Assembly: GCA_964373045.1 (NCBI GenBank)
Contig: CAYJSI010000006.1
Location: 878-64,877 of the forward strand
Direction of reading: 5' to 3'
Source: an uncultured bacterium
GTDB lineage: Bacteria; Omnitrophota; Omnitrophia; Omnitrophales; Aquincolibacteriaceae
Length of the DNA stretch: 64,000 nucleotides
Shown here one piece after another: positions 14,579-64,000 of this stretch (position 1 is its first letter; each line of letters begins with the position of its first letter). The position numbers were made by a program, and so were the translations under genes. The notes beneath the pieces were generated by a model, which ran no database searches, was not told the origin of the DNA, and was given only the letters and a program-made list of their open reading frames with translations.

Positions 14579-15670
14579 TTGACTGATTCCCCAAAACTTT
14601 CCGAGATCGTCCGTTTTTCCTTCACTAAGACTCGGGAGATTTTTTTTCCTTTCCAACTGAAACGCTGGATGCAGTGCCTTTTGGTGGTATGGCTCTGCGG
14701 GCACACCGCCTCCTTAGTTTGGAACGCCGTCATTTGGCCGCAGCCGAAGACCCCCGTTGTTTCCATGTTTGCTCCTCCTCCCATGCCCGCTTACGGCATT
14801 CCGGCCCCGGGCTTGGATGCTGCGCTGCCGGAATCTTTTATCCGAATGATGCAGGCCCCGGCGGGGGCTTCTCCGTCTCAGGAGGCGCTGCCCCTTGATT
14901 TGGCGCAAATTCAATCCACCATCCAATCGCTTACCTCTTATTTGATCCCGATTTTTTTGGCCCTGGGTTTTATTTTGGCCTGGCTCAGTTCACGTTTTGA
15001 CTTCCTCTTACTTGCATTTCTTCAGCAAAAAAAGGACTTCTCCATTCGCTCTTCCTTTTCTCAATTCAAATCCCTCGGCAACTCTTATCTTTTAAGCTCC
15101 CTCGTACTTTTTGCCGGGATTCTTGTGTTGAGCTGGCTGGTCTCGACCGGGATCGAAAAAATATCGAACGCTTTTTTTATCGTGAAGCCGATCGGGTATT
15201 TTTTTCTAACCTTACTCTCAGCCACTTCATTTCTTACGGCCTCTGTCGGAAGGGATTTTGTTCTCCCCATGATGTACCGCGATCAAATGAATTTTGTCTC
15301 GGCCTGCAGGAAATTCGTCTCGACAAAACCGCGCATTAGCAGTCTCATTCTCTATTTTATAAGTTTGTTAGGTTTGAGCTTCCTCGCTTTCTTGGTGATG
15401 GCGCTCCTTTTGGCGGTGGCGTTCCTAGTTTTGATTTTTGTTTCAATCATCACAGGTTTCACCGTGGGATTTACGGGAGTCCTCCTTCCTTTTTTGCGTG
15501 ATGCGATGCCTTTTCTCTCCGTCCTGATTTTGATTCCTTTTTTAGTGGTCGTTGTGCATGTATTATTCATGCTGCTTACGCCCATCCCCGTATTTTTTAG
15601 GATTTTCTCACTCACTTATCTGAACCGTCTCAGTCCTGAGTATGATTTATTAGGATTCCAAAAACGTTGA
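14579..15670 (+). CDS. Polytopic membrane protein of unknown function
   Basis: A 363-aa protein with several long hydrophobic helices and a Pro-rich periplasmic segment. It directly abuts the RDD gene. Confidence 0.35.
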   Translation: MTDSPKLSEIVRFSFTKTREIFFPFQLKRWMQCLLVVWLCGHTASLVWNAVIWPQPKTPVVSMFAPPPMPAYGIPAPGLDAALPESFIRMMQAPAGASPSQEALPLDLAQIQSTIQSLTSYLIPIFLALGFILAWLSSRFDFLLLAFLQQKKDFSIRSSFSQFKSLGNSYLLSSLVLFAGILVLSWLVSTGIEKISNAFFIVKPIGYFFLTLLSATSFLTASVGRDFVLPMMYRDQMNFVSACRKFVSTKPRISSLILYFISLLGLSFLAFLVMALLLAVAFLVLIFVSIITGFTVGFTGVLLPFLRDAMPFLSVLILIPFLVVVVHVLFMLLTPIPVFFRIFSLTYLNRLSPEYDLLGFQKR

Positions 15671-15775
15671 CCGTTATCTCAAGGAAAGGGTTACCCGCGT
15701 TAAGATCCATTCATGCCTGCGCATTCGGAATCCTTTCGGGCATGTGGTATCATTGAGCACAAAGGGGGAGAGCGC

Positions 15776-16171
15776 ATGCGAAAACACAGGCGGGTGACAA
15801 GGGCGCAGGCGAGAAGGGCGGCCGCGATTCCGGCGTCAGTCGATGAGTCTCTTGGTCTTTATTCCAAAATTGCCCACTTAAAATCCCGCATCGAGAAGCT
15901 TGCTGAATCCACAGTAAAGTCAGAGGAGAGGCTGCAGGATATTGAAATCCACCTCAACCTTCTAACCCGTTTAATTACAACCCTTTGTGTTGAAAAGTTT
16001 GGGATGAGAATTGGCGTCCTGAAGCGGTTGATTAAGCGCATCGAAAAAGAAGCCATTCGCGATTCGCAAATTCTCCACCTCGAGTCCCTTTACAAACTGC
16101 CCGTCCCTGAGAAGAAGAGCGGCGCACCACCCCCTCCCTCCAAAAACGACCCCTGGGAAGATATTTCCTAA
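15776..16171 (+). CDS. Hypothetical coiled-coil protein
   Basis: The ATG at 15776 follows an AAGGGGGAG RBS. The protein has a basic N-terminus and heptad-like repeats. The upstream part of the longer ORF lacks an RBS. Confidence 0.3.
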   Translation: MRKHRRVTRAQARRAAAIPASVDESLGLYSKIAHLKSRIEKLAESTVKSEERLQDIEIHLNLLTRLITTLCVEKFGMRIGVLKRLIKRIEKEAIRDSQILHLESLYKLPVPEKKSGAPPPPSKNDPWEDIS

Positions 16172-16226
16172 CTTGTTCTAAATAAATAGGTTAGGATTCC
16201 ATCTGTACGTCCGATAAACATAAGGA

Positions 16227-16254
16227 TTGCAAGCTCTTGTATTTTGATTAAAAT
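16227..16254 (+). promoter_or_regulatory. Putative promoter TTGCAA-16-TAAAAT for the topA run
   Basis: The hexamers lie in the AT-rich stretch ggattgcaagctcttgtattttgattaaaatacacacg, upstream of the structured 5' UTR. Confidence 0.3.
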
Positions 16255-16270
16255 ACACACGTTTTTTTAC

Positions 16271-16338
16271 TGTAGGGGCGGACCCAAGTGTCCGCCCCTA
16301 AACATGAGGGCCGACACACAGGTCCGCCCCTACATCAG
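16271..16338. repeat. Composite GC-rich palindromic element in the topA 5' UTR (TGTAGGGGCGGAC / GTCCGCCCCTA / GTCCGCCCCTACATCAG, mutually exclusive stems)
   Basis: A 10-bp stem, AGGGGCGGAC-ccaagt-GTCCGCCCCT, sits at 16274-16299. A second GTCCGCCCCTACA at 16322-16334 can pair with the same 5' arm. The element shares its GGCGGAC..GTCCGCC and CCCCTACAtCAG modules with the copies near 55.0 kb and 62.2 kb. Confidence 0.7.
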
Positions 16339-16353
16339 CCAGGAACATTCCTT

Positions 16354-18660
16354 ATGAAACTTGTTGTGAACGGTGAAAACAAAGCGATTCAGGGAGCTGC
16401 CACGCTTTCTGAGTTATTAACAGAATTTCGGATTAATCCAAAGACTGTCGTGGTGGAACATAATCGAGCTGTTGTTCCCCGCGAAAGGTTTCCATCCCAA
16501 AGGCTACAGGAGGGGGATACCGTTGAAATTGTGCGTTTTGTCGGCGGCGGGTCGGAGGGAGCCCGAAAAAAACCCAGCCATCTTGTCATCGTAGAGTCTC
16601 CCGCCAAGGCCAAGACCATCAATAAGTATCTCGGAGGCGATTATCAAGTCGAGGCCTCCATGGGCCACGTTCGCGACCTCCCCAAAAGCAAAATGGGGGT
16701 CGATATGAATGCTGAATTTGCCCCGCAGTATATCGTCATGAAAAAGGCTACGAAGACGGTCAGTCATCTCAAAAAACAGGCGAAGGGAAAAAAGGGAATT
16801 TACCTTGCCCCCGATCCTGACCGCGAGGGCGAGGCCATCAGCTGGCATCTCGCCCATATTTTTAAGGAGCAAGACGGCGATGTGACGATTCGCCGGGTGG
16901 TGTTTAACGAAATCACCAAAGAGGCTGTTCAGGAGGCCTTTCGTCATCCCCGTGAAATTGAAATGAATCTTGTCAATGCCCAGCAGGCACGCCGCGTGGT
17001 GGACCGGCTTGTGGGTTACGAATTAAGTCCTTTGCTCTGGCGCAAGGTGGGCCGCGGCCTGAGTGCGGGGCGCGTGCAATCGGTGGCGCTGCGATTGATT
17101 GTGGACCGCGAACGCGAAGTCAAAAATTTCGTGCCTCAGGAATATTGGTCAATTATCGCCAAGCTTTCCTCCGAGCAAACGGAAAATGCGGGAAAAATTT
17201 TCCAGGCTAAGCTCGATAAAATCGGCAAAGAAAAAGCCGATCTTAAGAATCAGGCCGATTCGGAAAATATCCGGGAAGAAATTCTCAAACTCCCTTTCAA
17301 GGTTGAAAATGTAGAAAAAAAAGAGCGGCAGCGGCGCCCCCAGCCTCCCTTTACGACCAGCAAACTTCAGCAGGAGGCCTACAATCGCCTCGGATTTCCC
17401 GCGGCCAAAACCATGAAGGTTGCCCAGAAGCTCTACGAGGGGGTCGAGCTCGGTTCGGAAGGCCCGGTCGGTTTAATCACCTACATGAGAACGGATTCGG
17501 TCCATGTGGCGGCTTCTGCCCGCGCGGAGGCAGCTCAATATGTCCGAAAGAAATTCGGCGACCCCTATCTCCCCAAAGAACCTCCCGTGTATAAATCCAA
17601 GAAGGGGGCCCAAGAGGCCCATGAGGCCATCCGTCCTTCCTCGGTTCATCGAGAACCCGAAACGCTGCGTTCTGTTTTGTCGGCGGATGAATTCAAACTT
17701 TATGATTTGATCTGGCGAAAATTTCTTGCTTCTCAAATGACGCCTGCGATCGACGAAAATATTTCCGTTTCGATCATGGCAGGGGAGCGGTACTTCTTTA
17801 AAACCACGGGCCGCCGCAATCTTTTCCCCGGTTTCGCCATTTTATTCGGGGAAGGGAAGCCGGCCAAAGAGGAGGAAGACGAAAAGGCGGAGAAAGATGA
17901 GGAGATCGAGCTTTCGGCGGAGGAGCTTCCATCGCTTATGGCAGGGGAAATCCTCAAGCTGCATGAACTTCTCGCCAACCAGCATTTTACAAAGCCCCCG
18001 GGCCGTTTTAACGATGCCAGCCTTGTGAAAACCCTGGAAGAAAAAGGAATCGGCCGGCCCAGCACTTATGCCCCGACCCTCTATACACTTCTTGCGCGTG
18101 AGTATGTCAATCGTAATGGGGGAGCGCTGATCCCCTCCGAGCTCGGTCAAACCGTGGCCGATCTTCTGGTGCAGCATTTTCCCAGAATTCTTGATTTTCA
18201 ATTTACCGCCACCATGGAAGAAGAGCTCGATAAGATTGAAGACGGAGAACTCGATTGGGTTCGGGTGGTGAAGGATTTCTACGGGCCCTTTAAGATCGAC
18301 ATGGATGCCGCCCACGAAGAGATGAAAAATATTCGAAGAGAAGTTATCCCCACCGACCATGTCTGCGATATCTGCGGCAAGGGGATGGTGATTAAGTGGG
18401 GACGTTTTGGAAAATTTCTGGCTTGTTCGGGTTTTCCCGATTGTAAATATACGCGATCGATTCCGACGGGATTTCGTTGTCCTGAGCCGGGCTGCGGCGG
18501 GGACCTTGTGAAAAGGATGTCTAAAAATAGGCGCACCTTTTATGGCTGTTCCAAGTATCCCAAGTGCACCCACATTTCGAATAAACTCCCCAAGCAGGAA
18601 TCCGGCATCGGTGAGGATGATACGATTTCTGAGAGCGATCGCGAGACCCTGGATGCTTAA
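16354..18660 (+). CDS. topA: DNA topoisomerase I with an in-frame N-terminal ThiS/MoaD-like ubiquitin-fold domain ending in GGG
   Basis: The first 66 aa (MKLVVNGE...VPRERF...LQEGDTVEIVRFVGGG) resemble ThiS. They run with no stop into the Toprim start LVIVESPAKAKTINKYLG. The Tyr domain and C-terminal Zn ribbons (CDICGKG, CSGFPDC, CPEPGCGG, CSKYPKC) follow. Confidence 0.85.
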   Translation: MKLVVNGENKAIQGAATLSELLTEFRINPKTVVVEHNRAVVPRERFPSQRLQEGDTVEIVRFVGGGSEGARKKPSHLVIVESPAKAKTINKYLGGDYQVEASMGHVRDLPKSKMGVDMNAEFAPQYIVMKKATKTVSHLKKQAKGKKGIYLAPDPDREGEAISWHLAHIFKEQDGDVTIRRVVFNEITKEAVQEAFRHPREIEMNLVNAQQARRVVDRLVGYELSPLLWRKVGRGLSAGRVQSVALRLIVDREREVKNFVPQEYWSIIAKLSSEQTENAGKIFQAKLDKIGKEKADLKNQADSENIREEILKLPFKVENVEKKERQRRPQPPFTTSKLQQEAYNRLGFPAAKTMKVAQKLYEGVELGSEGPVGLITYMRTDSVHVAASARAEAAQYVRKKFGDPYLPKEPPVYKSKKGAQEAHEAIRPSSVHREPETLRSVLSADEFKLYDLIWRKFLASQMTPAIDENISVSIMAGERYFFKTTGRRNLFPGFAILFGEGKPAKEEEDEKAEKDEEIELSAEELPSLMAGEILKLHELLANQHFTKPPGRFNDASLVKTLEEKGIGRPSTYAPTLYTLLAREYVNRNGGALIPSELGQTVADLLVQHFPRILDFQFTATMEEELDKIEDGELDWVRVVKDFYGPFKIDMDAAHEEMKNIRREVIPTDHVCDICGKGMVIKWGRFGKFLACSGFPDCKYTRSIPTGFRCPEPGCGGDLVKRMSKNRRTFYGCSKYPKCTHISNKLPKQESGIGEDDTISESDRETLDA

Positions 18661-20901: not shown

Positions 20902-21904
20902 AAATGGTCTTGTCTCTTCCCTCCTTTTTCCCGTCCTGGGAGCGAGCGAAAAAGTCTACGGGGGCGCCGTAGGGGCGACCCGGTTTTTGTACGAAAAAAA
21001 GGTTTTACGCCGGACCCGACTGCCTTTTCCCGTCGTGAGTGTCGGGAACCTCACCTGGGGCGGGACGGGGAAGACTCCCTTTGTGGAGTATCTTGCCCGT
21101 AAGATAGGAGAACAAAACAAAACCCCTCTTATCCTCACGCGCGGATACAGCCACGATGAAATTGAGCAATTTCGCCGCCATCTTCCGAGGGCCATTGTGG
21201 GGGTGGGGAAGCATCGAGGCCGGGTGGCGAAAAATCTCGCGAAGCAGCATCCAATCGATCTCGCCATCTTGGACGACGGTTTCCAGCATTGGCCCCTTGA
21301 ACGCAATTTTGAAATCGTGATGGTGAATGCCTTGAACCCTTTTGGCAACGGGCGGGTTCTGCCGCGCGGGATCTTAAGGGAGCCTCGAACCGTGCTCCGG
21401 AAAGCCCACCTGGTTGCGATCTCGCACTCGAATCTCATCACGAGCCAGGACCTGACAGCCCTGAAAGAAGAAATTCGCAAAGCGGCCCCGGAGGCGATCG
21501 TAATCGAAACCTACCTCGAGCCGCTCTTTTTTTACCGCGCGCGCAAGGGGGCTCGCGTTTCTCTGGACCGGCTTCAAAAACAGCGTGTGACGACTTTCTC
21601 TGCGGTCGGTTCCCCGCGCTCCTTTCAATTGCTGCTTGCCAAGCACCAGATTAAAGCCGTGCGTAATTTTGAATTTACCGATCATCACGCCTATTCGCGC
21701 CCCGAGCTTGAAGAGATTAAGGAAGTAAGCCATGCGGCCGCGGTGGATGAGGTCGTTACGACCGAAAAAGATTTTTACCGCTCCTCCCAGATGATCAGCG
21801 ACCTCTTAAATCCGCTTGTCCTGGCCACGCGGCTTCGCATCGCCTCAGGTGAAGAGCTTCTCTGGAACCGGATCTTTCAATTGATGGGGGCAGTGCGGCC
21901 GTGA
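20852..21904 (+). CDS. lpxK: Tetraacyldisaccharide 4'-kinase
   Basis: The P-loop VSVGNLTWGGTGKTP and the TRGY motif are present. Confidence 0.85.
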   Translation: MLNSMKSYFRRLAEGYENGLVSSLLFPVLGASEKVYGGAVGATRFLYEKKVLRRTRLPFPVVSVGNLTWGGTGKTPFVEYLARKIGEQNKTPLILTRGYSHDEIEQFRRHLPRAIVGVGKHRGRVAKNLAKQHPIDLAILDDGFQHWPLERNFEIVMVNALNPFGNGRVLPRGILREPRTVLRKAHLVAISHSNLITSQDLTALKEEIRKAAPEAIVIETYLEPLFFYRARKGARVSLDRLQKQRVTTFSAVGSPRSFQLLLAKHQIKAVRNFEFTDHHAYSRPELEEIKEVSHAAAVDEVVTTEKDFYRSSQMISDLLNPLVLATRLRIASGEELLWNRIFQLMGAVRP

Positions 21905-47455: not shown

Positions 47456-47472
47456 ATCAGTAACTAGTTGAT

Positions 47473-47520
47473 AAAAGGGGACAGGCTGCTTTTCCAAAAA
47501 AGCAGCCTGTCCCCTTTTAT
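47473..47520. terminator. Bidirectional rho-independent terminator between ahcY (+) and the GNAT/nuo operon (-)
   Basis: AAAAGGGGACAGGCTGC-ttttccaaaaaa-GCAGCCTGTCCCCTTTTAT has a 13-bp GC-rich perfect stem, flanked by an A-run 5' and a T-run 3'. Confidence 0.65.
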
Positions 47521-47523
47521 CTT

Positions 47524-48102
47524 TTAGTCGGCGGCGTAGTGTTCTTGGGCGCGCAAGTCGTAGACGTAAATAAGCAGATCGTGGATTTCCCCGTTCACAT
47601 CCTTCACGTGCTGGGGAAGCGTAGCCAGTTTCACAAAACCCAACTTCTCAAAGATGGCAATCGGGTTTTTCTGCTCCGTCGTAAATTCTCCCTCGAGTTT
47701 CTGAAGTCCCGAATCGATCGCGACCTGAATAATTTCACCTACCAAAAGGGTCGCAAGGCCTTTTCCCCGATATTCGGGGTGGATTACAATGCGTACCGTT
47801 CCGATGTGGCTTTTCCAACCGCCCCTCATTTGATGGAGCGTGCAATCCCCGACAATCTTCCCGTTAATTTCTGCGATCAAAGGAAGGATCATCTCATAGT
47901 TTAAATTGGCAATCCAGTGGTGAATGACCCTCGGGTCTTTGACATTGTCTCGAAGATAAAGAAGGTCGTCGGTAGGAGTGGCCTTGAAAAATTCAACCAG
48001 GGCCTGCTCGTCGTTAGAAATGAGAGGGCGGACGATCACGCGCGTCCCGTCGTTTAACTTGGCTTGTTTGGGGTAACGTTCTTCTAAGACGAGCTCAAGC
48101 AT
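47524..48102 (-). CDS. GNAT-family N-acetyltransferase
   Basis: The acetyl-CoA site is HPEYRGKGLATLL (R/Q-x-x-G-x-G/A). Confidence 0.65.
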   Translation of the reverse strand: MLELVLEERYPKQAKLNDGTRVIVRPLISNDEQALVEFFKATPTDDLLYLRDNVKDPRVIHHWIANLNYEMILPLIAEINGKIVGDCTLHQMRGGWKSHIGTVRIVIHPEYRGKGLATLLVGEIIQVAIDSGLQKLEGEFTTEQKNPIAIFEKLGFVKLATLPQHVKDVNGEIHDLLIYVYDLRAQEHYAAD

Positions 48103-51028: not shown

Positions 51029-52993
51029 TTAAGGTCGAAGCTCAAAAAACATGAGCGCTAAGATCCCAAAGAAGACGATCAAAAGATAATGCTGCACGAG
51101 CCCGGTTTGAAAACGTCTCAGAAGGGCGCTCGTCCACTGCGTGAAATAGCCCACGAAATTAACGAGGCCATCCACGATATGTTGATCAATCCAGTGCTGG
51201 AGGTCGCTTACCTTCACCGTTCCAATGCCCGTGGCGTTTACGAGCCCGTCAATGACCACCTGATCAAAGCGGAAAAGAAATTCCCCCAATCGCTGAAAGG
51301 GACGAATGATCAGGGCCGAATAAATTTCATCAAACCAGAACTTGTTTCGAGAAAGTTGGTAAAGAGGTTGAAAGGTGCGAGCGGCGGCCTCGGCCCAGCT
51401 TAGGTTTTTAAGGTAGATCAAGGCCGCAAGCAGGATTCCGCCGACACTCGCCGCAATGGAAGAGCCCATGACGAACCAGTTGATCGTGTGTTCGGCGGCC
51501 TCATGATGGCTGCCATGAATAAAACCCTGAAACCAGTGATGCATCCAGGGCGATCCTGGAATTCCAATGAAAAGTGAGCCAGTGGCAAGGATCCAGAGCG
51601 GCCATGTCATGAGGGCGGGTGACTCGTGGGCATGAATCTTGTGATTGCGGGTTTCGCCAAAAAAGGTAAGAAAGACAAGACGGAACATATAAAAGGCCGT
51701 CATAAAAGCAGTGAGCAGCAGCAAGCCCAAAATAAACCTATTTCCGGAGTCGTAGGCTGCGAGCAGGATCTCGTCCTTACTCCAGAATCCCGAAAGGGGA
51801 GGAACGCCTGCGATGGCCAGCGAGGCGATGACAAACGTTGTCGCCGTGTGTTTCATTTTTCCGAAAAGGCCGCCCATCTCGCGAATATCCTGAGTGTGTG
51901 TGCCGTGGATTACGCTTCCGGCCCCAAGGAAGAGGAGGGCCTTAAAAAAGGCATGCGTCATCAAATGAAACGTGCCGGCGCCCATGCCGTTCAGGCCCAT
52001 AGCGGTAACCATATATCCCAGTTGTGAAATCGTGGAGTAGGCCAGAATTTTTTTGATATCCGTAGCAGTAAGCGCGATGAAGGCTGCCATAAAAGCTGTG
52101 ATAAGTCCGATGACCGTTACGACAGAGAGAACAGCGGGGAAGGCGGCAAAAAGAACAAACGAGCGCGCCACAAGATAAACGCCTGCGGCAACCATGGTCG
52201 CGGCGTGAATAAGTGCGCTTACTGGGGTGGGACCTTCCATCGCATCCGGAAGCCAGACGTGAAGAGGAAATTGCGCCGATTTTCCAATCGTTCCGCAGAA
52301 AATAAGGAGAGCGGCAAGGGGAAGGAGGGGCAGGCCTTGTGCCTGCCCATGTTCCGAAAGGGCGCCCCCAAGGGACGCCCCTACAACATGTTCAAGATCC
52401 GCAAAATTCAGCGTGCCAGCCGCCACATACAAAGTCAGGATGCCAAGGAAAAATCCCACATCACCCACGCGGGTTGTAAGAAACGCCTTCCGTCCAGCAT
52501 TGGCCGCCGAATCCTTCTCGAACCAAAAACCGATCAGAAGATACGAGCAAAGGCCCATGATTTCCCAGGCAATGAAGAAAAGGAGATAGTTATTGGCGAT
52601 CACAAGGGCCAGCATCGCCGCCATAAATAACGAAACATAAGCGAAGAACCGCGAAAAACGCGGGTCTTCACGCATATAACCTGCCGAGTAAATCTGAATC
52701 AGGGTTCCGACGATTGTGACCACGAAAAGAAGGGTGGCTGAAAGAGGGTCGAGAAGATAGCCGAATTTTAAACCTGCATTTCCAAGCCAGAGCCAAACAA
52801 TTTCTTTGGAGAAAGTTCCACCCTGTGCCACCTGCCAGGCGGCAGGCAAAGCGACGGCACAGGAAAGGAGACTTGAAAAAATTGAAATGCCGGCCGCGCC
52901 ACGGCGCACCTGGCGGCCAAAAAGGATATTGATCACAAAAGCAATCAAGGGAAAAACAGGAATGAGATACGCGTATTCAGTCATGGTTACCAT
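51029..52993 (-). CDS. nuoL: NADH-quinone oxidoreductase subunit L
   Basis: A 654-aa antiporter-like subunit with a long C-terminal lateral helix, carrying WLPDAMEGPTPVSALIHAATMV. Confidence 0.85.
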   Translation of the reverse strand: MVTMTEYAYLIPVFPLIAFVINILFGRQVRRGAAGISIFSSLLSCAVALPAAWQVAQGGTFSKEIVWLWLGNAGLKFGYLLDPLSATLLFVVTIVGTLIQIYSAGYMREDPRFSRFFAYVSLFMAAMLALVIANNYLLFFIAWEIMGLCSYLLIGFWFEKDSAANAGRKAFLTTRVGDVGFFLGILTLYVAAGTLNFADLEHVVGASLGGALSEHGQAQGLPLLPLAALLIFCGTIGKSAQFPLHVWLPDAMEGPTPVSALIHAATMVAAGVYLVARSFVLFAAFPAVLSVVTVIGLITAFMAAFIALTATDIKKILAYSTISQLGYMVTAMGLNGMGAGTFHLMTHAFFKALLFLGAGSVIHGTHTQDIREMGGLFGKMKHTATTFVIASLAIAGVPPLSGFWSKDEILLAAYDSGNRFILGLLLLTAFMTAFYMFRLVFLTFFGETRNHKIHAHESPALMTWPLWILATGSLFIGIPGSPWMHHWFQGFIHGSHHEAAEHTINWFVMGSSIAASVGGILLAALIYLKNLSWAEAAARTFQPLYQLSRNKFWFDEIYSALIIRPFQRLGEFLFRFDQVVIDGLVNATGIGTVKVSDLQHWIDQHIVDGLVNFVGYFTQWTSALLRRFQTGLVQHYLLIVFFGILALMFFELRP

Positions 52994-53298: not shown

Positions 53299-53810
53299 AA
53301 GGCTTTGTCTCTTTTGGCCATGAGGATGGCTCCGATCAAGGCGGCAATAAGAACCACCGAGATGACTTCAAAAGGAAAAACGTATTTTCCCATCAGGGCA
53401 TTGCCAAGGTCACGGACAGAAAGCTTGGCAATAAGGGTTTCAGGGTTCATGGGCCAGGACGTCCTCTGAATGAGGCCGGTGAGGGCAACGGCCAGGGCGA
53501 TCGTTCCTCCAAAGGCAGGCAATTCGAGCTGGTTGTGATGGCGAACCCCTTTGTCTCCAAAACGCTCGGTCAGCATGACGGCAAAAATGACGAGCGTCAT
53601 GACGGCTCCTACATAAAGTAAAATTTGAACAACCGCCAGGAACTCTGCCCGAAGTGCAAGATAGATGCCCGCGATTCCAAGCAAAACAGCGGCCAGTGAC
53701 AGGGCCGCATGAAAGAGGTTGCGAAAGGTCACAACCCCGATGGCTGCGATCACAGAGACACCCATCACCGCGTAAAGTCCTATTTTGACAAGGAGGTTGA
53801 GTGTGTCCAT
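53295..53810 (-). CDS. nuoJ: NADH-quinone oxidoreductase subunit J
   Basis: A ~170-aa TM protein in the conserved position. Confidence 0.8.
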   Translation of the reverse strand: MDTLNLLVKIGLYAVMGVSVIAAIGVVTFRNLFHAALSLAAVLLGIAGIYLALRAEFLAVVQILLYVGAVMTLVIFAVMLTERFGDKGVRHHNQLELPAFGGTIALAVALTGLIQRTSWPMNPETLIAKLSVRDLGNALMGKYVFPFEVISVVLIAALIGAILMAKRDKAL

Positions 53811-54976
53811 TATTCTGCGAACTGATACACGCGTTTTTCCGGCATGTAAACTTTATTGAGTTTCATCAGGATCCAAAACGTGACACTTAATATCGCGATC
53901 GAACCCACGATTCTTAAAGGCCGATTGGCAAAGTACCAAAATCCGGCCACAAAAATATTCATGAGAGTCAAAGGAAGCAGGAATTTCCAGGCAAGACCCA
54001 TGAGCTGATCCACGCGAAAGCGCGGCAGCGTGCCCCGGAACCAGATCATGACGAAAATGAGGGCGTACGTTTTAAGGAAAAACCAGAGCCAGGAAGGAAG
54101 CAGGGGGCCCTGCCAGCCGCCAAGAAAAAGCGTTGCCGTCAGTCCTGAAATGGTAAAAGCATTCATAAACTCTGCCATATAAAAAAGGGCAAATTTCATA
54201 CCGCTATACTCGGTGTGAAAGCCGGCCACGATTTCAGATTCGGCTTCAGGTAAATCAAAAGGAGAGCGGTTGCATTCCGCGACGCCGCAGAGAAAGAAAA
54301 TAATAAACGCCAAAAATCCCCAGGGAGTGAAGACGAACCATTTCAAACCATGCCAGCCTTCTTGCGCCTCCACGATATCGACGGTGGAAAGGCTTCCCGT
54401 CATCAAGATGACGGGGACCACAGAAAGCACCATCGGGACTTCGTAGGAAATTATCTGGGCGACCGAGCGCATCCCTCCCAAGAGAGAGAATTTATTGCGG
54501 GACCCCCAGCTTGCCATGAAGATGGCGATCGTGGTGGTCGAAGATACCGCAATAAAGAAAAGCAGGCCGACATTCAAATCAACGGCTGTCATCCCGCGCC
54601 CGAAAGGGATCACGGCAAAGACGAGGAGCGCCGGAATGACAATCAGGACCGGGGCCAGGAAGTGAACCACAGGGTCCGCCTGCAGGGGAACGATATCCTC
54701 TTTGGTGAGCATCTTGATCCCGTCGGCAAACGGCTGAAGAAGCCCCCACTTTCCTACGCGGTTCGGGCCAATCCGGTTTTGCATACGGCCCACGACTTTG
54801 CGTTCAAGGAGTGTTAAGTACATCATGGTGACGGGGCCCAAGATGGCGATGGCCACAATGCTGACTTTGATGGAAAGCAGCACAAGCACCCAGTCGGGAA
54901 GAAGAGGCGAGGCGAGGTTGATGATGGATTGTTTTATTTGTACAAAAATTTGATCCATTATTTCGTTCTCTGTCAT
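53810..54976 (-). CDS. nuoH: NADH-quinone oxidoreductase subunit H
   Basis: LERKVVGRMQNRIGPNRVG is the NuoH/ND1 signature. Confidence 0.85.
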   Translation of the reverse strand: MTENEIMDQIFVQIKQSIINLASPLLPDWVLVLLSIKVSIVAIAILGPVTMMYLTLLERKVVGRMQNRIGPNRVGKWGLLQPFADGIKMLTKEDIVPLQADPVVHFLAPVLIVIPALLVFAVIPFGRGMTAVDLNVGLLFFIAVSSTTTIAIFMASWGSRNKFSLLGGMRSVAQIISYEVPMVLSVVPVILMTGSLSTVDIVEAQEGWHGLKWFVFTPWGFLAFIIFFLCGVAECNRSPFDLPEAESEIVAGFHTEYSGMKFALFYMAEFMNAFTISGLTATLFLGGWQGPLLPSWLWFFLKTYALIFVMIWFRGTLPRFRVDQLMGLAWKFLLPLTLMNIFVAGFWYFANRPLRIVGSIAILSVTFWILMKLNKVYMPEKRVYQFAE

Positions 54977-55004: not shown

Positions 55005-55032
55005 GTAGGGGCACGGCGCGCCGTGCCCCTAC
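55005..55032. repeat. Perfect 28-bp palindrome GTAGGGGCACGGCGCGCCGTGCCCCTAC in the nuoI-nuoH intergenic spacer
   Basis: A self-complementary 28-mer. The same core recurs at 62272-62299 (GTAATGG variant) and 62895-62922 (one mismatch). It is followed by ATCAG as at 16334. Confidence 0.8.
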
Positions 55033-55063: not shown

Positions 55064-55660
55064 TTATGTTGTTGGTGTTGTGGGTGGCGCTTGCGCCGCC
55101 TTTGCTTTGGCAGCCGCTTCAGCCGCCTTCTTTTTTTCTTCCGCCTCACGCCGTCTTTGGTCAATCGCCTGGGCATCGGTTGGGCGGATCTTATTAAAAT
55201 GCTCGTTTGATTTTAAAAGATCCTCTTTGTGGTACAGCAGACGACTCTGGCGATCGGCGCCCGCGATCTCAAATTCATGGTCCATGAAGATGGCATCAAA
55301 GGGGCACGTCTCCTCACAGATGCCGCAGTTCATGCAAACCGTAAAATCAATATCAAAGGTCGCGGGCCGCTTCAGAGGTTTTCCGTCCTTATCGAATTCG
55401 CGGACGATATAAATACACTTGGGCGGGCATTCCTTGGCGCAGATGTCGCAGGCGACGCAGCGCAGATTGTCCGGCGTGTTGTCGTACAGAAGGAAAGGGA
55501 AATTGCGGAAATTTTCTTTCACAGGAAGGCATTTTTCCGGGTACTCGGTGGTAAAAAGGCCTCCCTCCTCGGGGCCCCTGAAATAAGAGGCCACAAAGCT
55601 TTTTAAAGTCACGAACATTCCCTTCAGAATCCCAGTTCCGAATATCATTTCAACTCCCAA
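55064..55660 (-). CDS. nuoI: NADH-quinone oxidoreductase subunit I (2x[4Fe-4S]) with an Ala/Lys/Glu-rich C-terminal tail
   Basis: CVACDICAKECP and CMNCGICEETCP are the two Fe-S cluster motifs. The tail reads EAEEKKKAAEAAAKAKAAQAPPTTPTT. Confidence 0.8.
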   Translation of the reverse strand: MGVEMIFGTGILKGMFVTLKSFVASYFRGPEEGGLFTTEYPEKCLPVKENFRNFPFLLYDNTPDNLRCVACDICAKECPPKCIYIVREFDKDGKPLKRPATFDIDFTVCMNCGICEETCPFDAIFMDHEFEIAGADRQSRLLYHKEDLLKSNEHFNKIRPTDAQAIDQRRREAEEKKKAAEAAAKAKAAQAPPTTPTT

Positions 55661-62219: not shown

Positions 62220-62231
62220 AGAAAAAGTAGA

Positions 62232-62353
62232 GGCGGACCCGCGTGTCCGCCCAACGTTCATGGTTACCAATGTAATGGCACGGCGCGCCGTGCCATTACG
62301 ATAAGGGCCGACAACCGCCACGAAACCTTCGGCAGGCAGGCGCGGGTCGGCCC
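62232..62353. repeat. Composite palindromic element cluster: GGCGGAC-ccgcgt-GTCCGCC hairpin + 28-bp GTAATGGCACGGCGCGCCGTGCCATTAC palindrome + GGGCCGAC...GTCGGCCCCTACAGCATC
   Basis: It has the same modular organisation as the 16271-16338 element, with the GCACGGCGCGCCGTGC core of 55005-55032. It lies between the response regulator and archease. Confidence 0.75.
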
Positions 62354-62370
62354 CTACAGCATCATTCTCT

Positions 62371-62790: not shown

Positions 62791-64000
62791 CCATTCCCTT
62801 GAACAAAATCGACGAGTGCCGCTGGGAGATCCCGAAAAGTTATAAGAGCGGGATGCGGGTGCCGGGGCTTATTTTTGCGAGCGAGGACATGGTGGTAGGG
62901 GCACGGCGCGCCATGCCCCTACAAAATGACCAGGCCCTGGAACAAGTTGCCAACGTTGCCCACCTTCCGGGGATTGTGAAATATTCCCTTGCCATGCCGG
63001 ACATTCACTGGGGCTATGGATTTCCGATTGGAGGCGTGGCGGCTACGGATCCCGACGAAGGCGGTGTGATTTCTCCGGGCGGAGTCGGTTACGATATTAA
63101 CTGCGGCGTAAGACTCATCCGCACGAATTTAAAAGAGGCCGAGGTCAAACCAAGACTTCGCGAACTCATCGGTGCACTTTTTAATACCATTCCCTGCGGT
63201 GTCGGTCAGTCGGGAGATATCCGCGTGAACAAGCAAGAGCTTAAAAAATTGGTGACTCAAGGGGCGCGGTGGGCTGTGGGGCGCGGTTTGGGAGGTGAGG
63301 ACGATCTTGATCACACTGAAGCGAACGGCGTTCTTGAGGATGCTGATCCTTGCGCAGTCTCCGAAAGGGCTTATGAACGGGGGGCCGATCAGCTCGGAAC
63401 CCTTGGCTCGGGCAACCATTTTTTAGAAGTCCAGGTAGTGGATAAAATTTTTGATTCGGATTCGGCGCGCCAGTTTGATTTAGAAGAAAACCAAGTGACG
63501 GTCATGATCCACTCCGGTTCGCGCGGATTCGGTTATCAAGTGTGTGAAGATTCACTCGAAGCCGCGCGCCGGGCGCTTACGAAGTACAAAATTTCAGTGC
63601 CCGATATCCAACTCGCCTGCGCTCCCGTCAATTCTCCGGAGGGTCGCCAGTACCTCGCCGCCATGCGTGCGGCCGCCAATTATGCCTGGAATAATCGGCA
63701 GTGTCTTCTTGCCCTGACACGCAGCCTTTTCGAGAAATTTTTTAGGATGAGTCCACGCGATCTTGGGATGGATCTCATTTATGATGTGGCCCACAACATT
63801 GCGAAATTCGAGCGTTTCAAAATCGAGGGCAAGGAAAAACTCCTTTGCGTCCACCGCAAAGGTGCCACACGCGCTTTTACGGGCGAGCCGGTGATCATCC
63901 CGGGGGATATGGGCCGCAATTCCTACCTATTAACAGGGACTCGGCAGGCGATGGAGGAAACCTTCGGCACGTCCTGCCACGGCGCGGGCCGGGCCATGTC
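62787..64000 (+). CDS. rtcB: RNA-splicing ligase RtcB (3' end beyond the window)
   Basis: MPDIHWGYGFPIGGVAATD, NCGVRL, GSGNHF and CHGAGR are RtcB metal- and GMP-site motifs. The ORF runs off the window, which is why the ORF track does not list it. Confidence 0.85.
   Translation, partial: MTIPLNKIDECRWEIPKSYKSGMRVPGLIFASEDMVVGARRAMPLQNDQALEQVANVAHLPGIVKYSLAMPDIHWGYGFPIGGVAATDPDEGGVISPGGVGYDINCGVRLIRTNLKEAEVKPRLRELIGALFNTIPCGVGQSGDIRVNKQELKKLVTQGARWAVGRGLGGEDDLDHTEANGVLEDADPCAVSERAYERGADQLGTLGSGNHFLEVQVVDKIFDSDSARQFDLEENQVTVMIHSGSRGFGYQVCEDSLEAARRALTKYKISVPDIQLACAPVNSPEGRQYLAAMRAAANYAWNNRQCLLALTRSLFEKFFRMSPRDLGMDLIYDVAHNIAKFERFKIEGKEKLLCVHRKGATRAFTGEPVIIPGDMGRNSYLLTGTRQAMEETFGTSCHGAGRAM
62895..62922 (+). 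repeat. 28-bp palindromic repeat copy (one mismatch to the 55005 core) read through in frame inside rtcB, encoding VGARRAMPL
   Basis: GTAGGGGCACGGCGCGCCATGCCCCTAC begins at an rtcB codon boundary. The surrounding segment between ASE and NDQALEQ is about 5 aa longer than in RtcB proteins I recall. Confidence 0.7.

Follow-up and report, generated by a model that had tools for sequence, protein, structure and literature searches.

The GC-rich palindromic DNA just upstream of topA in an uncultured Candidatus Omnitrophota bacterium raises the question of whether it is a regulatory device of that gene or one copy of a repeat scattered over the genome. A preliminary description of the surrounding 64-kb stretch (the whole of the DNA analysed, here called the window) had proposed both, namely a modular family of dispersed palindromes with copies at four or more loci and a co-option of the topA copy as a terminator/antiterminator-like element. 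REPs and REPINs are short repeats that fold into hairpins and whose spread is ascribed to a transposase called RayT or TnpA-REP. The results below make it highly probable that the palindromes of the window are GTAG-tagged REPs, some of them joined as inverted dimers (REPINs), and are mobile elements of the RayT type.

The window, which named relatives of its TopA and RtcB place in Candidatus Omnitrophota, has a G+C content of 51% and holds ten matches to GCCCCTAC against 0.86 +/- 0.96 expected, a count that none of 100 shuffled sequences reached. Seven of the ten fall within the elements. Another, at 52377, belongs to what may be a remnant in nuoL; the matches at 20969 and 45772 are unrelated coding sequence. 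We recognized seven clear units at four loci, together with a possible fifth locus (Table 1). Type 1 is a “canonical long” REP, GTAGGGGCGGACC-N5-GTCCGCCC, laid out as head-to-head (HH) dimers at 16271-16334 and 62227-62357, and type 2 is a 28-nt “double-foot” REP, GTAGGGGCACGGCGCGCCGTGCCCCTAC, with sites at 55005, 62272 (a variant) and 62895. A tail CCCCTACA(T/G)CA recurs at 16327, 55026 and 62351. The GC stems are 8 to 14 bp long and carry GTAG/CTAC tags, the exceptions being one unit in which GTAG is followed by AGGC and the nested variant, which has GTAA. Every building block that had been named as common to the four loci is present, as GC-rich hairpins bounded by GTAG...CTAC. The copies between nuoI and nuoH and between the response regulator and archease were confirmed in their places, but the copy at 62895, which had been taken as intergenic, lies within the coding sequence of rtcB.

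Table 1. Repeat units of the window and the features around the topA copy (R1, covariance model described in the text).
Feature	Position	Strand	Basis or context
Promoter-like site TTGCAA-16-TAAAAT, upstream of the REPIN	16227-16254	+	Consensus scan; block conserved in three relatives
REPIN, head-to-head dimer of two type-1 units, GTAG/CTAC outermost	16271-16334	+	Inverted-repeat scan, RNA fold
Type-1 unit GTAGGGGCGGACCCAAGTGTCCGCCC: GTAG + GGGCGGAC / CCAAGT (6-nt loop) / GTCCGCCC	16272-16297	+	R1 44.1 bits, E 4.7e-13
Inverted type-1 unit, one G.G stem mismatch	16308-16333	-	R1 34.4 bits, E 1.2e-9
thiS-topA fusion ORF: ThiS PF02597 + Toprim + Topoisom_bac + Zn ribbon	16354-18660	+	20 nt 3' of the REPIN
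Possible degenerate in-frame REP dimer in nuoL, GTAGGGGCGTCCCTTGGGGGCGCCC ... GGGCAGGCACAAGGCCTGCCCCTCC, encoding VGASLGGALSEHGQAQGLPL	52324-52384	-	R1 18.7 + 11 bits
Type-2 double-foot REP GTAGGGGCACGGCGCGCCGTGCCCCTAC, perfect 28-nt palindrome	55005-55032	.	Between nuoI (55064-55660, -) and nuoH (53810-54976, -)
Composite REPIN, outer type-1 units with a double-foot variant nested in the spacer	62227-62357	+	Inverted repeats I12, I14, I8; -68.5 kcal/mol
Type-1 unit GTAGAGGCGGACCCGCGTGTCCGCCC, GTAGAGGC head	62227-62252	+	R1 41.2 bits, E 4.8e-12
Double-foot variant GTAATGGCACGGCGCGCCGTGCCATTAC, perfect palindrome, GTA/TAC ends	62272-62299	.	Inverted repeat I8; compared by eye with 55005-55032
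Type-1-like unit with 33-nt expanded loop, GTAGGGGCCGAC...GTCGGCCC	62302-62357	-	Read from sequence; inverted repeat I14
Double-foot REP in rtcB coding sequence, in frame V-G-A-R-R-A-M-P-L, one stem mismatch (GCCATGCC)	62895-62922	.	RtcB comparison

A covariance model, R1, was built from 62 units of other genomes, none of them from the window. It recovered the type-1 units of the window with 44.1, 41.2 and 34.4 bits (E from 5e-13 to 1e-9), responded weakly to the double-foot units (16-17 bits) and saw only the head of the unit with the expanded loop (11.2 bits). Searches of the window against Rfam gave no match at the gathering threshold, and at an E-value threshold only sub-threshold noise from miRNA-precursor hairpins; a literature search with the DNA strings themselves and with the peptides that they encode brought up nothing but unrelated primers and proteins. 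A GTAG-tagged REP is by definition a palindrome of 20-50 nt with a conserved GT[AG]G in front that is capable of forming a stem-loop; the inverted-repeat scan and the model matches describe such palindromes, three of the four loci are intergenic and two HH dimers are present, as is characteristic of REPs and of their extragenic inverted dimers. Between the end of the response regulator gene (62219) and the start of archease (62371) there are 151 nt, of which the composite REPIN takes up 131. In the double-foot variant nested within it, GG has become AT in one foot and CC has become AT in the other relative to the canonical 28-mer, so that the tag GTAG reads GTAA; these paired changes suggest that the arms were kept complementary. 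The candidate fifth locus, in nuoL, consists of two adjacent GC hairpins with a GTAG head and a CTCC tail (z -3.5), in a loop that varies in length among homologues and is longer here than in most of them. It may be an old insertion of a REP dimer, and because of the variable loop length its sequence is no more than suggestive. The longest inverted repeat of the window, at 47463-47528 (31-nt arms, 90% complementary, 4-nt loop, A/T-rich flanks), has no relation to the REPs and resembles a terminator that works in both directions. The end of the window also occurs as an identical 4.3-kb Logan contig.

The shapes of the two kinds of unit, GTAG+GGG.../...CCC for type 1 and GTAGGGGC...GCCCCTAC for type 2, are those of the REPs that go with TnpA-REP subclass 2.4, which corresponds to Bertels' Group 4 (Quentin et al. 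2018, PMC6006769; Bertels et al. 2017, PMC5581495). According to Quentin et al., a “canonical long” REP of this subclass has GT[AG]G and a stem foot of three G-C pairs, a “double-foot” REP reads 5' GTRG ... CYAC 3', the proteins carry the motifs NH[IFV]H, WQ and YIxNNP, REPs are inserted in frame in the tnpA-REP gene, and the subclass is scattered over many phyla (PMC6006769). [quoted passage not shown] Differences were noted as well: Candidatus Omnitrophota is not among the hosts named in the available text of either paper (PMC6006769, PMC5581495), and the copies described here also occupy a 5' leader and rtcB, with no cognate gene in the window. The elements are a known kind of REP/REPIN in a new host phylum.

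The topA copy, 64 nt long, reads TGTAGGGGCGGAC-CCAAGT-GTCCGCCCCTA-aacatga-GGGCCGAC-ACACAG-GTCCGCCCCTACA, with 27-nt arms that are 85% complementary, and lies between a promoter-like site and the start codon of thiS-topA. The promoter-like site makes it probable that the REPIN is part of the 5' UTR, on a presumed transcription start; the earlier placement in the “topA 5' UTR” thus stands as a probable one, with the correction that the downstream gene is a thiS-topA fusion beginning at 16354. The N terminus of this TopA is a ThiS/MoaD-like beta-grasp domain that ends in ...FVGGG ahead of Toprim. The same fusion is common to most of the best 120 Omnitrophota-like TopA matches, a subset of about 700 aa being without it, and the closest other TopA is 73% identical. 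Directly upstream of the -35-like hexamer there is an invariant TACGTCCGATAAA box at 16206-16218, which is also found in three relatives (L122, L123 and L125) and persists at a TopA identity of only about 70%; an operator or UP-like site is one possibility.

In an intrinsic terminator a U-run comes directly after a G+C-rich hairpin. The idea of a switch in this leader came from the 5' arm, and the pairing itself was borne out: 16271-16283 can pair with 16290-16301 or with 16322-16334, as one arm with two alternative partners does in transcription attenuators. If the promoter-like site is used the element is probably transcribed, and the first of the local hairpins (-22.7 kcal/mol) would be the earliest to fold as the RNA is made. 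However, the fold prediction that had been suggested as a check gave alternatives that are far from balanced. In the minimum-energy fold of the RNA the outer arms pair into the long hairpin (-51.5 kcal/mol, z -7.3), some 18 kcal/mol ahead of the two local hairpins taken together (-33.8 kcal/mol), with pair probabilities of 0.999-1.0 for the long hairpin and 0.0 for the local ones. Neither hairpin is followed by a U-run, the sequences at these places being CCCCUAAACAUG and CAUCAGCCAGG, and a terminator scan of 15600-16700 found nothing on the + strand. The hairpin does not include the Shine-Dalgarno-like AGGAA (16341-16345). The modules recur at unrelated loci and within rtcB, and the elements have no match to an Rfam family. 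The element is also missing from three orthologous leaders of syntenic relatives in which the promoter block is conserved, a kind of finding that the preliminary description had named in advance as speaking against its own proposal.

Thus none of the marks of an attenuator, that is a U-run, mutually exclusive structures of comparable stability, a sensing element or a conserved leader, was found at the topA copy. Its one arm with two partners arises because the element consists of two inverted copies of one hairpin, and is the generic geometry of such a dimer. The lack of a T-run, the single dominant fold, the position of AGGAA outside the hairpin and the lack of conservation together remove the case for a terminator/antiterminator, and we regard a riboregulator that works by switching the partner of the 5' arm as very unlikely. 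If the element affects topA expression at all, it would do so through a side effect of its very stable 5' hairpin and not as a switch; such a side effect on the stability or translation of the thiS-topA mRNA is possible.

Relatives of the Omnitrophota bacterium provided three clean comparisons of filled with empty sites. The three relatives named above keep the order RDD protein, small ORF, thiS-topA, xerC, kdtA and lpxK as well as the block TACGTCCGATAAA...TTTACAA...TAAAAT, and their leaders run from this block to the ATG without the element and are about 64 nt shorter. Two relatives keep the histidine kinase, regulator, archease and rtcB, with spacers of 54 and 6 nt between regulator and archease against 151 nt here. 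In rtcB the REP site amounts to a net gain of 6 aa (18 nt) plus about ten substituted bases, and the six residues are missing from RtcB of 18 Omnitrophota relatives and of P. horikoshii. A scan of 62.8 kb of DNA of the relatives with R1 gave no match below E 0.001. These are distant relatives, with identities of 69-73% in TopA and about 75% in RtcB, and the insertion points are accordingly not fixed to the base. On these alignments the topA copy is a lineage-specific insertion, loss in the relatives instead of insertion here being formally possible. A consensus insertion site was sought by eye over the four loci and none was found. Upstream of topA the window carries, between the RDD gene and that small ORF, an ORF for a 363-aa membrane protein (14579-15670) that is not there in the three syntenic relatives.

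Further copies were looked for in public DNA, as had been proposed, and a family alignment was made from them; each module was found in at least 120 stretches of public genomes and metagenomes, and the modular, dispersed character of the family was thereby upheld. For type 1 an exact-pattern scan with GTAGRGGCGGACCNNNNNGTCSGCCC, limited to one genome per species, gave at least 120 stretches where we estimate that less than one match would arise by chance. Among the matches listed the hosts belong to more than 20 phyla, including Acidobacteriota, Chloroflexota, Bacteroidota, Clostridia, Cyanobacteria, Desulfobacterota, Nitrospirota, Planctomycetota, candidate-phyla-radiation groups and one other Omnitrophota MAG. 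The 26-mer at 16272-16297 has an identical copy in an Acidobacteriaceae MAG (L089). A scan for type 2 with GTAGGGGCACGGCNNGCCGTGCCCCTAC returned at least 120 metagenome contigs carrying the 28-mer class of 55005-55032, in some of them within RayT genes. Of 147 listed type-1 matches with enough downstream sequence, 43 form HH dimers (partner within 120 nt, median spacer 22 nt), and the two middle stem pairs vary in a compensatory manner among units (GG/CC, GC/GC, AG/CT, CG/CG, GA/TC). All-against-all clustering of the ORFs at 120 listed type-1 loci showed no recurrent neighbour gene family, so the copies are dispersed and are not cargo of a larger element. One Syntrophobacterales contig (L082, 1675-2007) has at its end type-1 units in tandem, full ones (GTAGGGGCGGACCTATGTGTCCGCCC) alternating with headless ones (GGACCTATGTGTCCGCCC) and GTTTGC as the spacer.

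RayT genes that agree point by point with the description of subclass 2.4 were met with at several of these loci. In a Dehalococcoidia MAG (L104) a type-1 unit lies within an ORF with the Pfam domain Y1_Tnp (PF01797), and a second unit supplies the TAG stop codon of that ORF; the ORF family has at least 7986 matches, many of them named “REP element-mobilizing transposase RayT”. The RayT proteins that we fetched carry the motifs NH[IFV]H, WQ and Y..NP. When 20 members are aligned, a nearly invariant VGADLRVCP...GAHxGAPLP comes after the HUH motif (MPNHxHGII), and in five genes the DNA of this segment is an HH REP dimer, GTAGGGGC(NN)ACCTGCGTGT(NN)GCCC...GGGCGCACAC..AGGTGCGCCCCTAC, with copies also flanking one of them. 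Type-1 units occur with RayT genes at L104, L126-L129 and L037 (the genes of L104 and L037 were found by phmmer and HMM, the motif regex being too strict). A RayT gene of the same family is present at 12 of the 120 listed type-2 loci, with the 28-mer mostly inside the gene, where it encodes GRGTARRAPT or VGARHAVPL, and in several cases on both sides of it as well. REPs that flank and lie in frame within tnpA-REP are thus found in other genomes; within the 64-kb window both the motif regex and the HMM gave no RayT gene. Stem changes of the in-gene units are compensatory (GCG GAC/GTC CGC, GCC GAC/GTC GGC and GCA GAC/GTC TGC in alignment A2, at L126-L129 and L104), being silent on one side and changing a residue (R/G/C) on the other. 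The RayT genes carry from 2 to more than 5 units each and their proteins are 177-277 aa long. In Chloracidobacterium thermophilum and an unrelated metagenome contig a type I restriction-modification operon has a RayT-family gene (L126, 10001-10666; L128, 10001-10660) placed between hsdS and hsdR, with an overlap of a few bases on each side.

Because the window has no RayT gene, we infer mobilization by RayT from the identity of the units with RayT-associated units elsewhere and from the comparison of filled with empty sites. By analogy with other RAYT groups, the hairpin would form once the DNA is single-stranded, its stem and GTAG tag would be recognized by a RayT whose gene lies elsewhere in the genome, and this enzyme would cleave and rejoin the strand so that copies land at new sites; in this lineage these would have been the thiS-topA 5' leader, the nuoI/nuoH and regulator/archease spacers and, in frame, rtcB. 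Published in vitro cleavage of single-stranded REPs covers only groups 2 and 3, where the tag and the stem are both required by the E. coli, S. maltophilia and Marinomonas enzymes (PMC8266576). The E. coli REPs or BIMEs and their TnpA-REP (group 2/subclass 2.2; Messing 2012, PMC3479197; Corneloup 2021, PMC8266576) resemble the present system in having a hairpin with a 5' GTAG and inverted pairs, and the HUH/Tyr single-strand cleavage of that enzyme is the reaction that we propose for the window units. They differ in that the E. coli enzyme requires a bulged stem, whereas the stems of the window are perfect or nearly so and belong to a different enzyme subclass (PMC3479197, PMC8266576).

A broader comparison is offered by the GTAG super-family of Di Nocera et al. 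(2013, PMC3733652), which comprises 24 published families. Its REPs form HH, TT and HT dimers, favour sites between ORFs that run in one direction or converge, and include copies inserted in frame inside genes. With these and with the REPINs (Bertels and Rainey 2011, PMC3116915) the window elements share the GTAG tag on a GC stem of 6-13 bp, HH dimers with outward tags and short spacers, a position mainly between unidirectional ORFs, occasional in-frame copies and several types per genome. Intragenic REPs and the palindromic elements of Rickettsia are alike in placing an in-frame palindrome in a housekeeping gene (here rtcB, possibly nuoL) that adds a short peptide. According to the same source, however, RPE-1 is longer and RPE-4 and RPE-6 are CGTC-tagged (PMC3733652), while the rtcB element is a 28-nt GTAG double-foot unit with a net addition of six residues.

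Two other origins for the palindromes have to be considered. They could be products of chance in GC-rich DNA or a restriction-site-like motif; indeed the core contains GGCGCGCC/GCGCGC-type sites, and two of the ten matches to GCCCCTAC are unrelated coding sequence. But ten matches where 0.86 are expected, none of 100 shuffles as rich, model E-values down to 5e-13 and identical units in other phyla refute this reading, whose probability we consider negligible. A MITE ends in inverted repeats and has a duplicated target site on either side. Elements of this kind, moved by a DDE transposase, or palindrome remnants of IS200/IS605 elements, would likewise be small, scattered and bounded by inverted repeats, and would need no RayT, a gene that the window does not have. 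On the other side, no target-site duplication was seen by eye at any copy (the bases on either side being TTTTTTTACT and TCAGCC, AATCGTC and ATCAGG, AGAAAAA and AGCATC), and the ends are GTAG/CTAC tags instead of longer terminal inverted repeats. Moreover, clustering of ORFs brought out no recurrent tnpB or IS200-type gene beside the 120 listed loci, and units of identical sequence lie inside or beside RayT-family genes of other genomes. We therefore hold miniature transposons other than RayT substrates to be improbable.

A different matter, compatible with the REP/REPIN reading, is whether repeats of mobile origin now act locally as RNA or DNA elements. They could be mRNA-stabilizing hairpins or partial terminators between nuoI and nuoH and between regulator and archease, and a 5' hairpin that alters the stability or translation of the thiS-topA mRNA. 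The genes on either side of each of the three intergenic copies are co-directional, with the copy 8-32 nt past the upstream stop codon; the folds are very stable, and a model REP of E. coli acts, depending on context, as a partly Rho-dependent terminator and as a stabilizer of upstream mRNA (bioRxiv 10.64898/2026.03.23.713779). REPs at large lie mostly between unidirectional or convergent ORFs according to Di Nocera et al. (PMC3733652). Such a bias of position may, however, equally be explained by tolerance to insertion, and relatives with these operons lack the elements, so that the operons require no such role. A local function of this kind seems to us a possibility on the unlikely side.

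From an evolutionary point of view, the findings lead us to speculate about a single REP lineage, near-constant across more than 20 phyla, in which an in-frame master copy within the RayT (subclass 2.4) gene would carry its own substrate and seed the REPINs of the genome, the topA-leader copy among them. In-frame insertion as such has already been published by Quentin et al. (PMC6006769); that a master copy constrains the family is our own suggestion from the sequences, and a rather doubtful one. If it were correct it would explain the identical 26-mer in the Omnitrophota window and the Acidobacteriaceae MAG, and also the compensatory stem changes of in-gene units despite a change of residue (VGADLRV-R/C/G-P).

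For annotation, the palindromes are to be labelled as REP/REPIN repeats and not as a topA riboregulator, and the extra residues in RtcB, perhaps also in NuoL, are to be read as repeat-derived; ORF callers will produce spurious peptides from REP units, such as VGADxxVRP and GTARRAPT. The REP type of RayT subclass 2.4 is now extended to Candidatus Omnitrophota, an uncultured phylum. Earlier work describes REPIN populations as lineage-specific (PMC3733652, PMC3116915), whereas the type-1 unit is near-identical in the more than 20 phyla listed. A near-identical REP unit that is spread over many phyla and also lies in frame in the transposase gene is a poor fit with lineage-specific REPIN populations that co-diverge with their RAYT.
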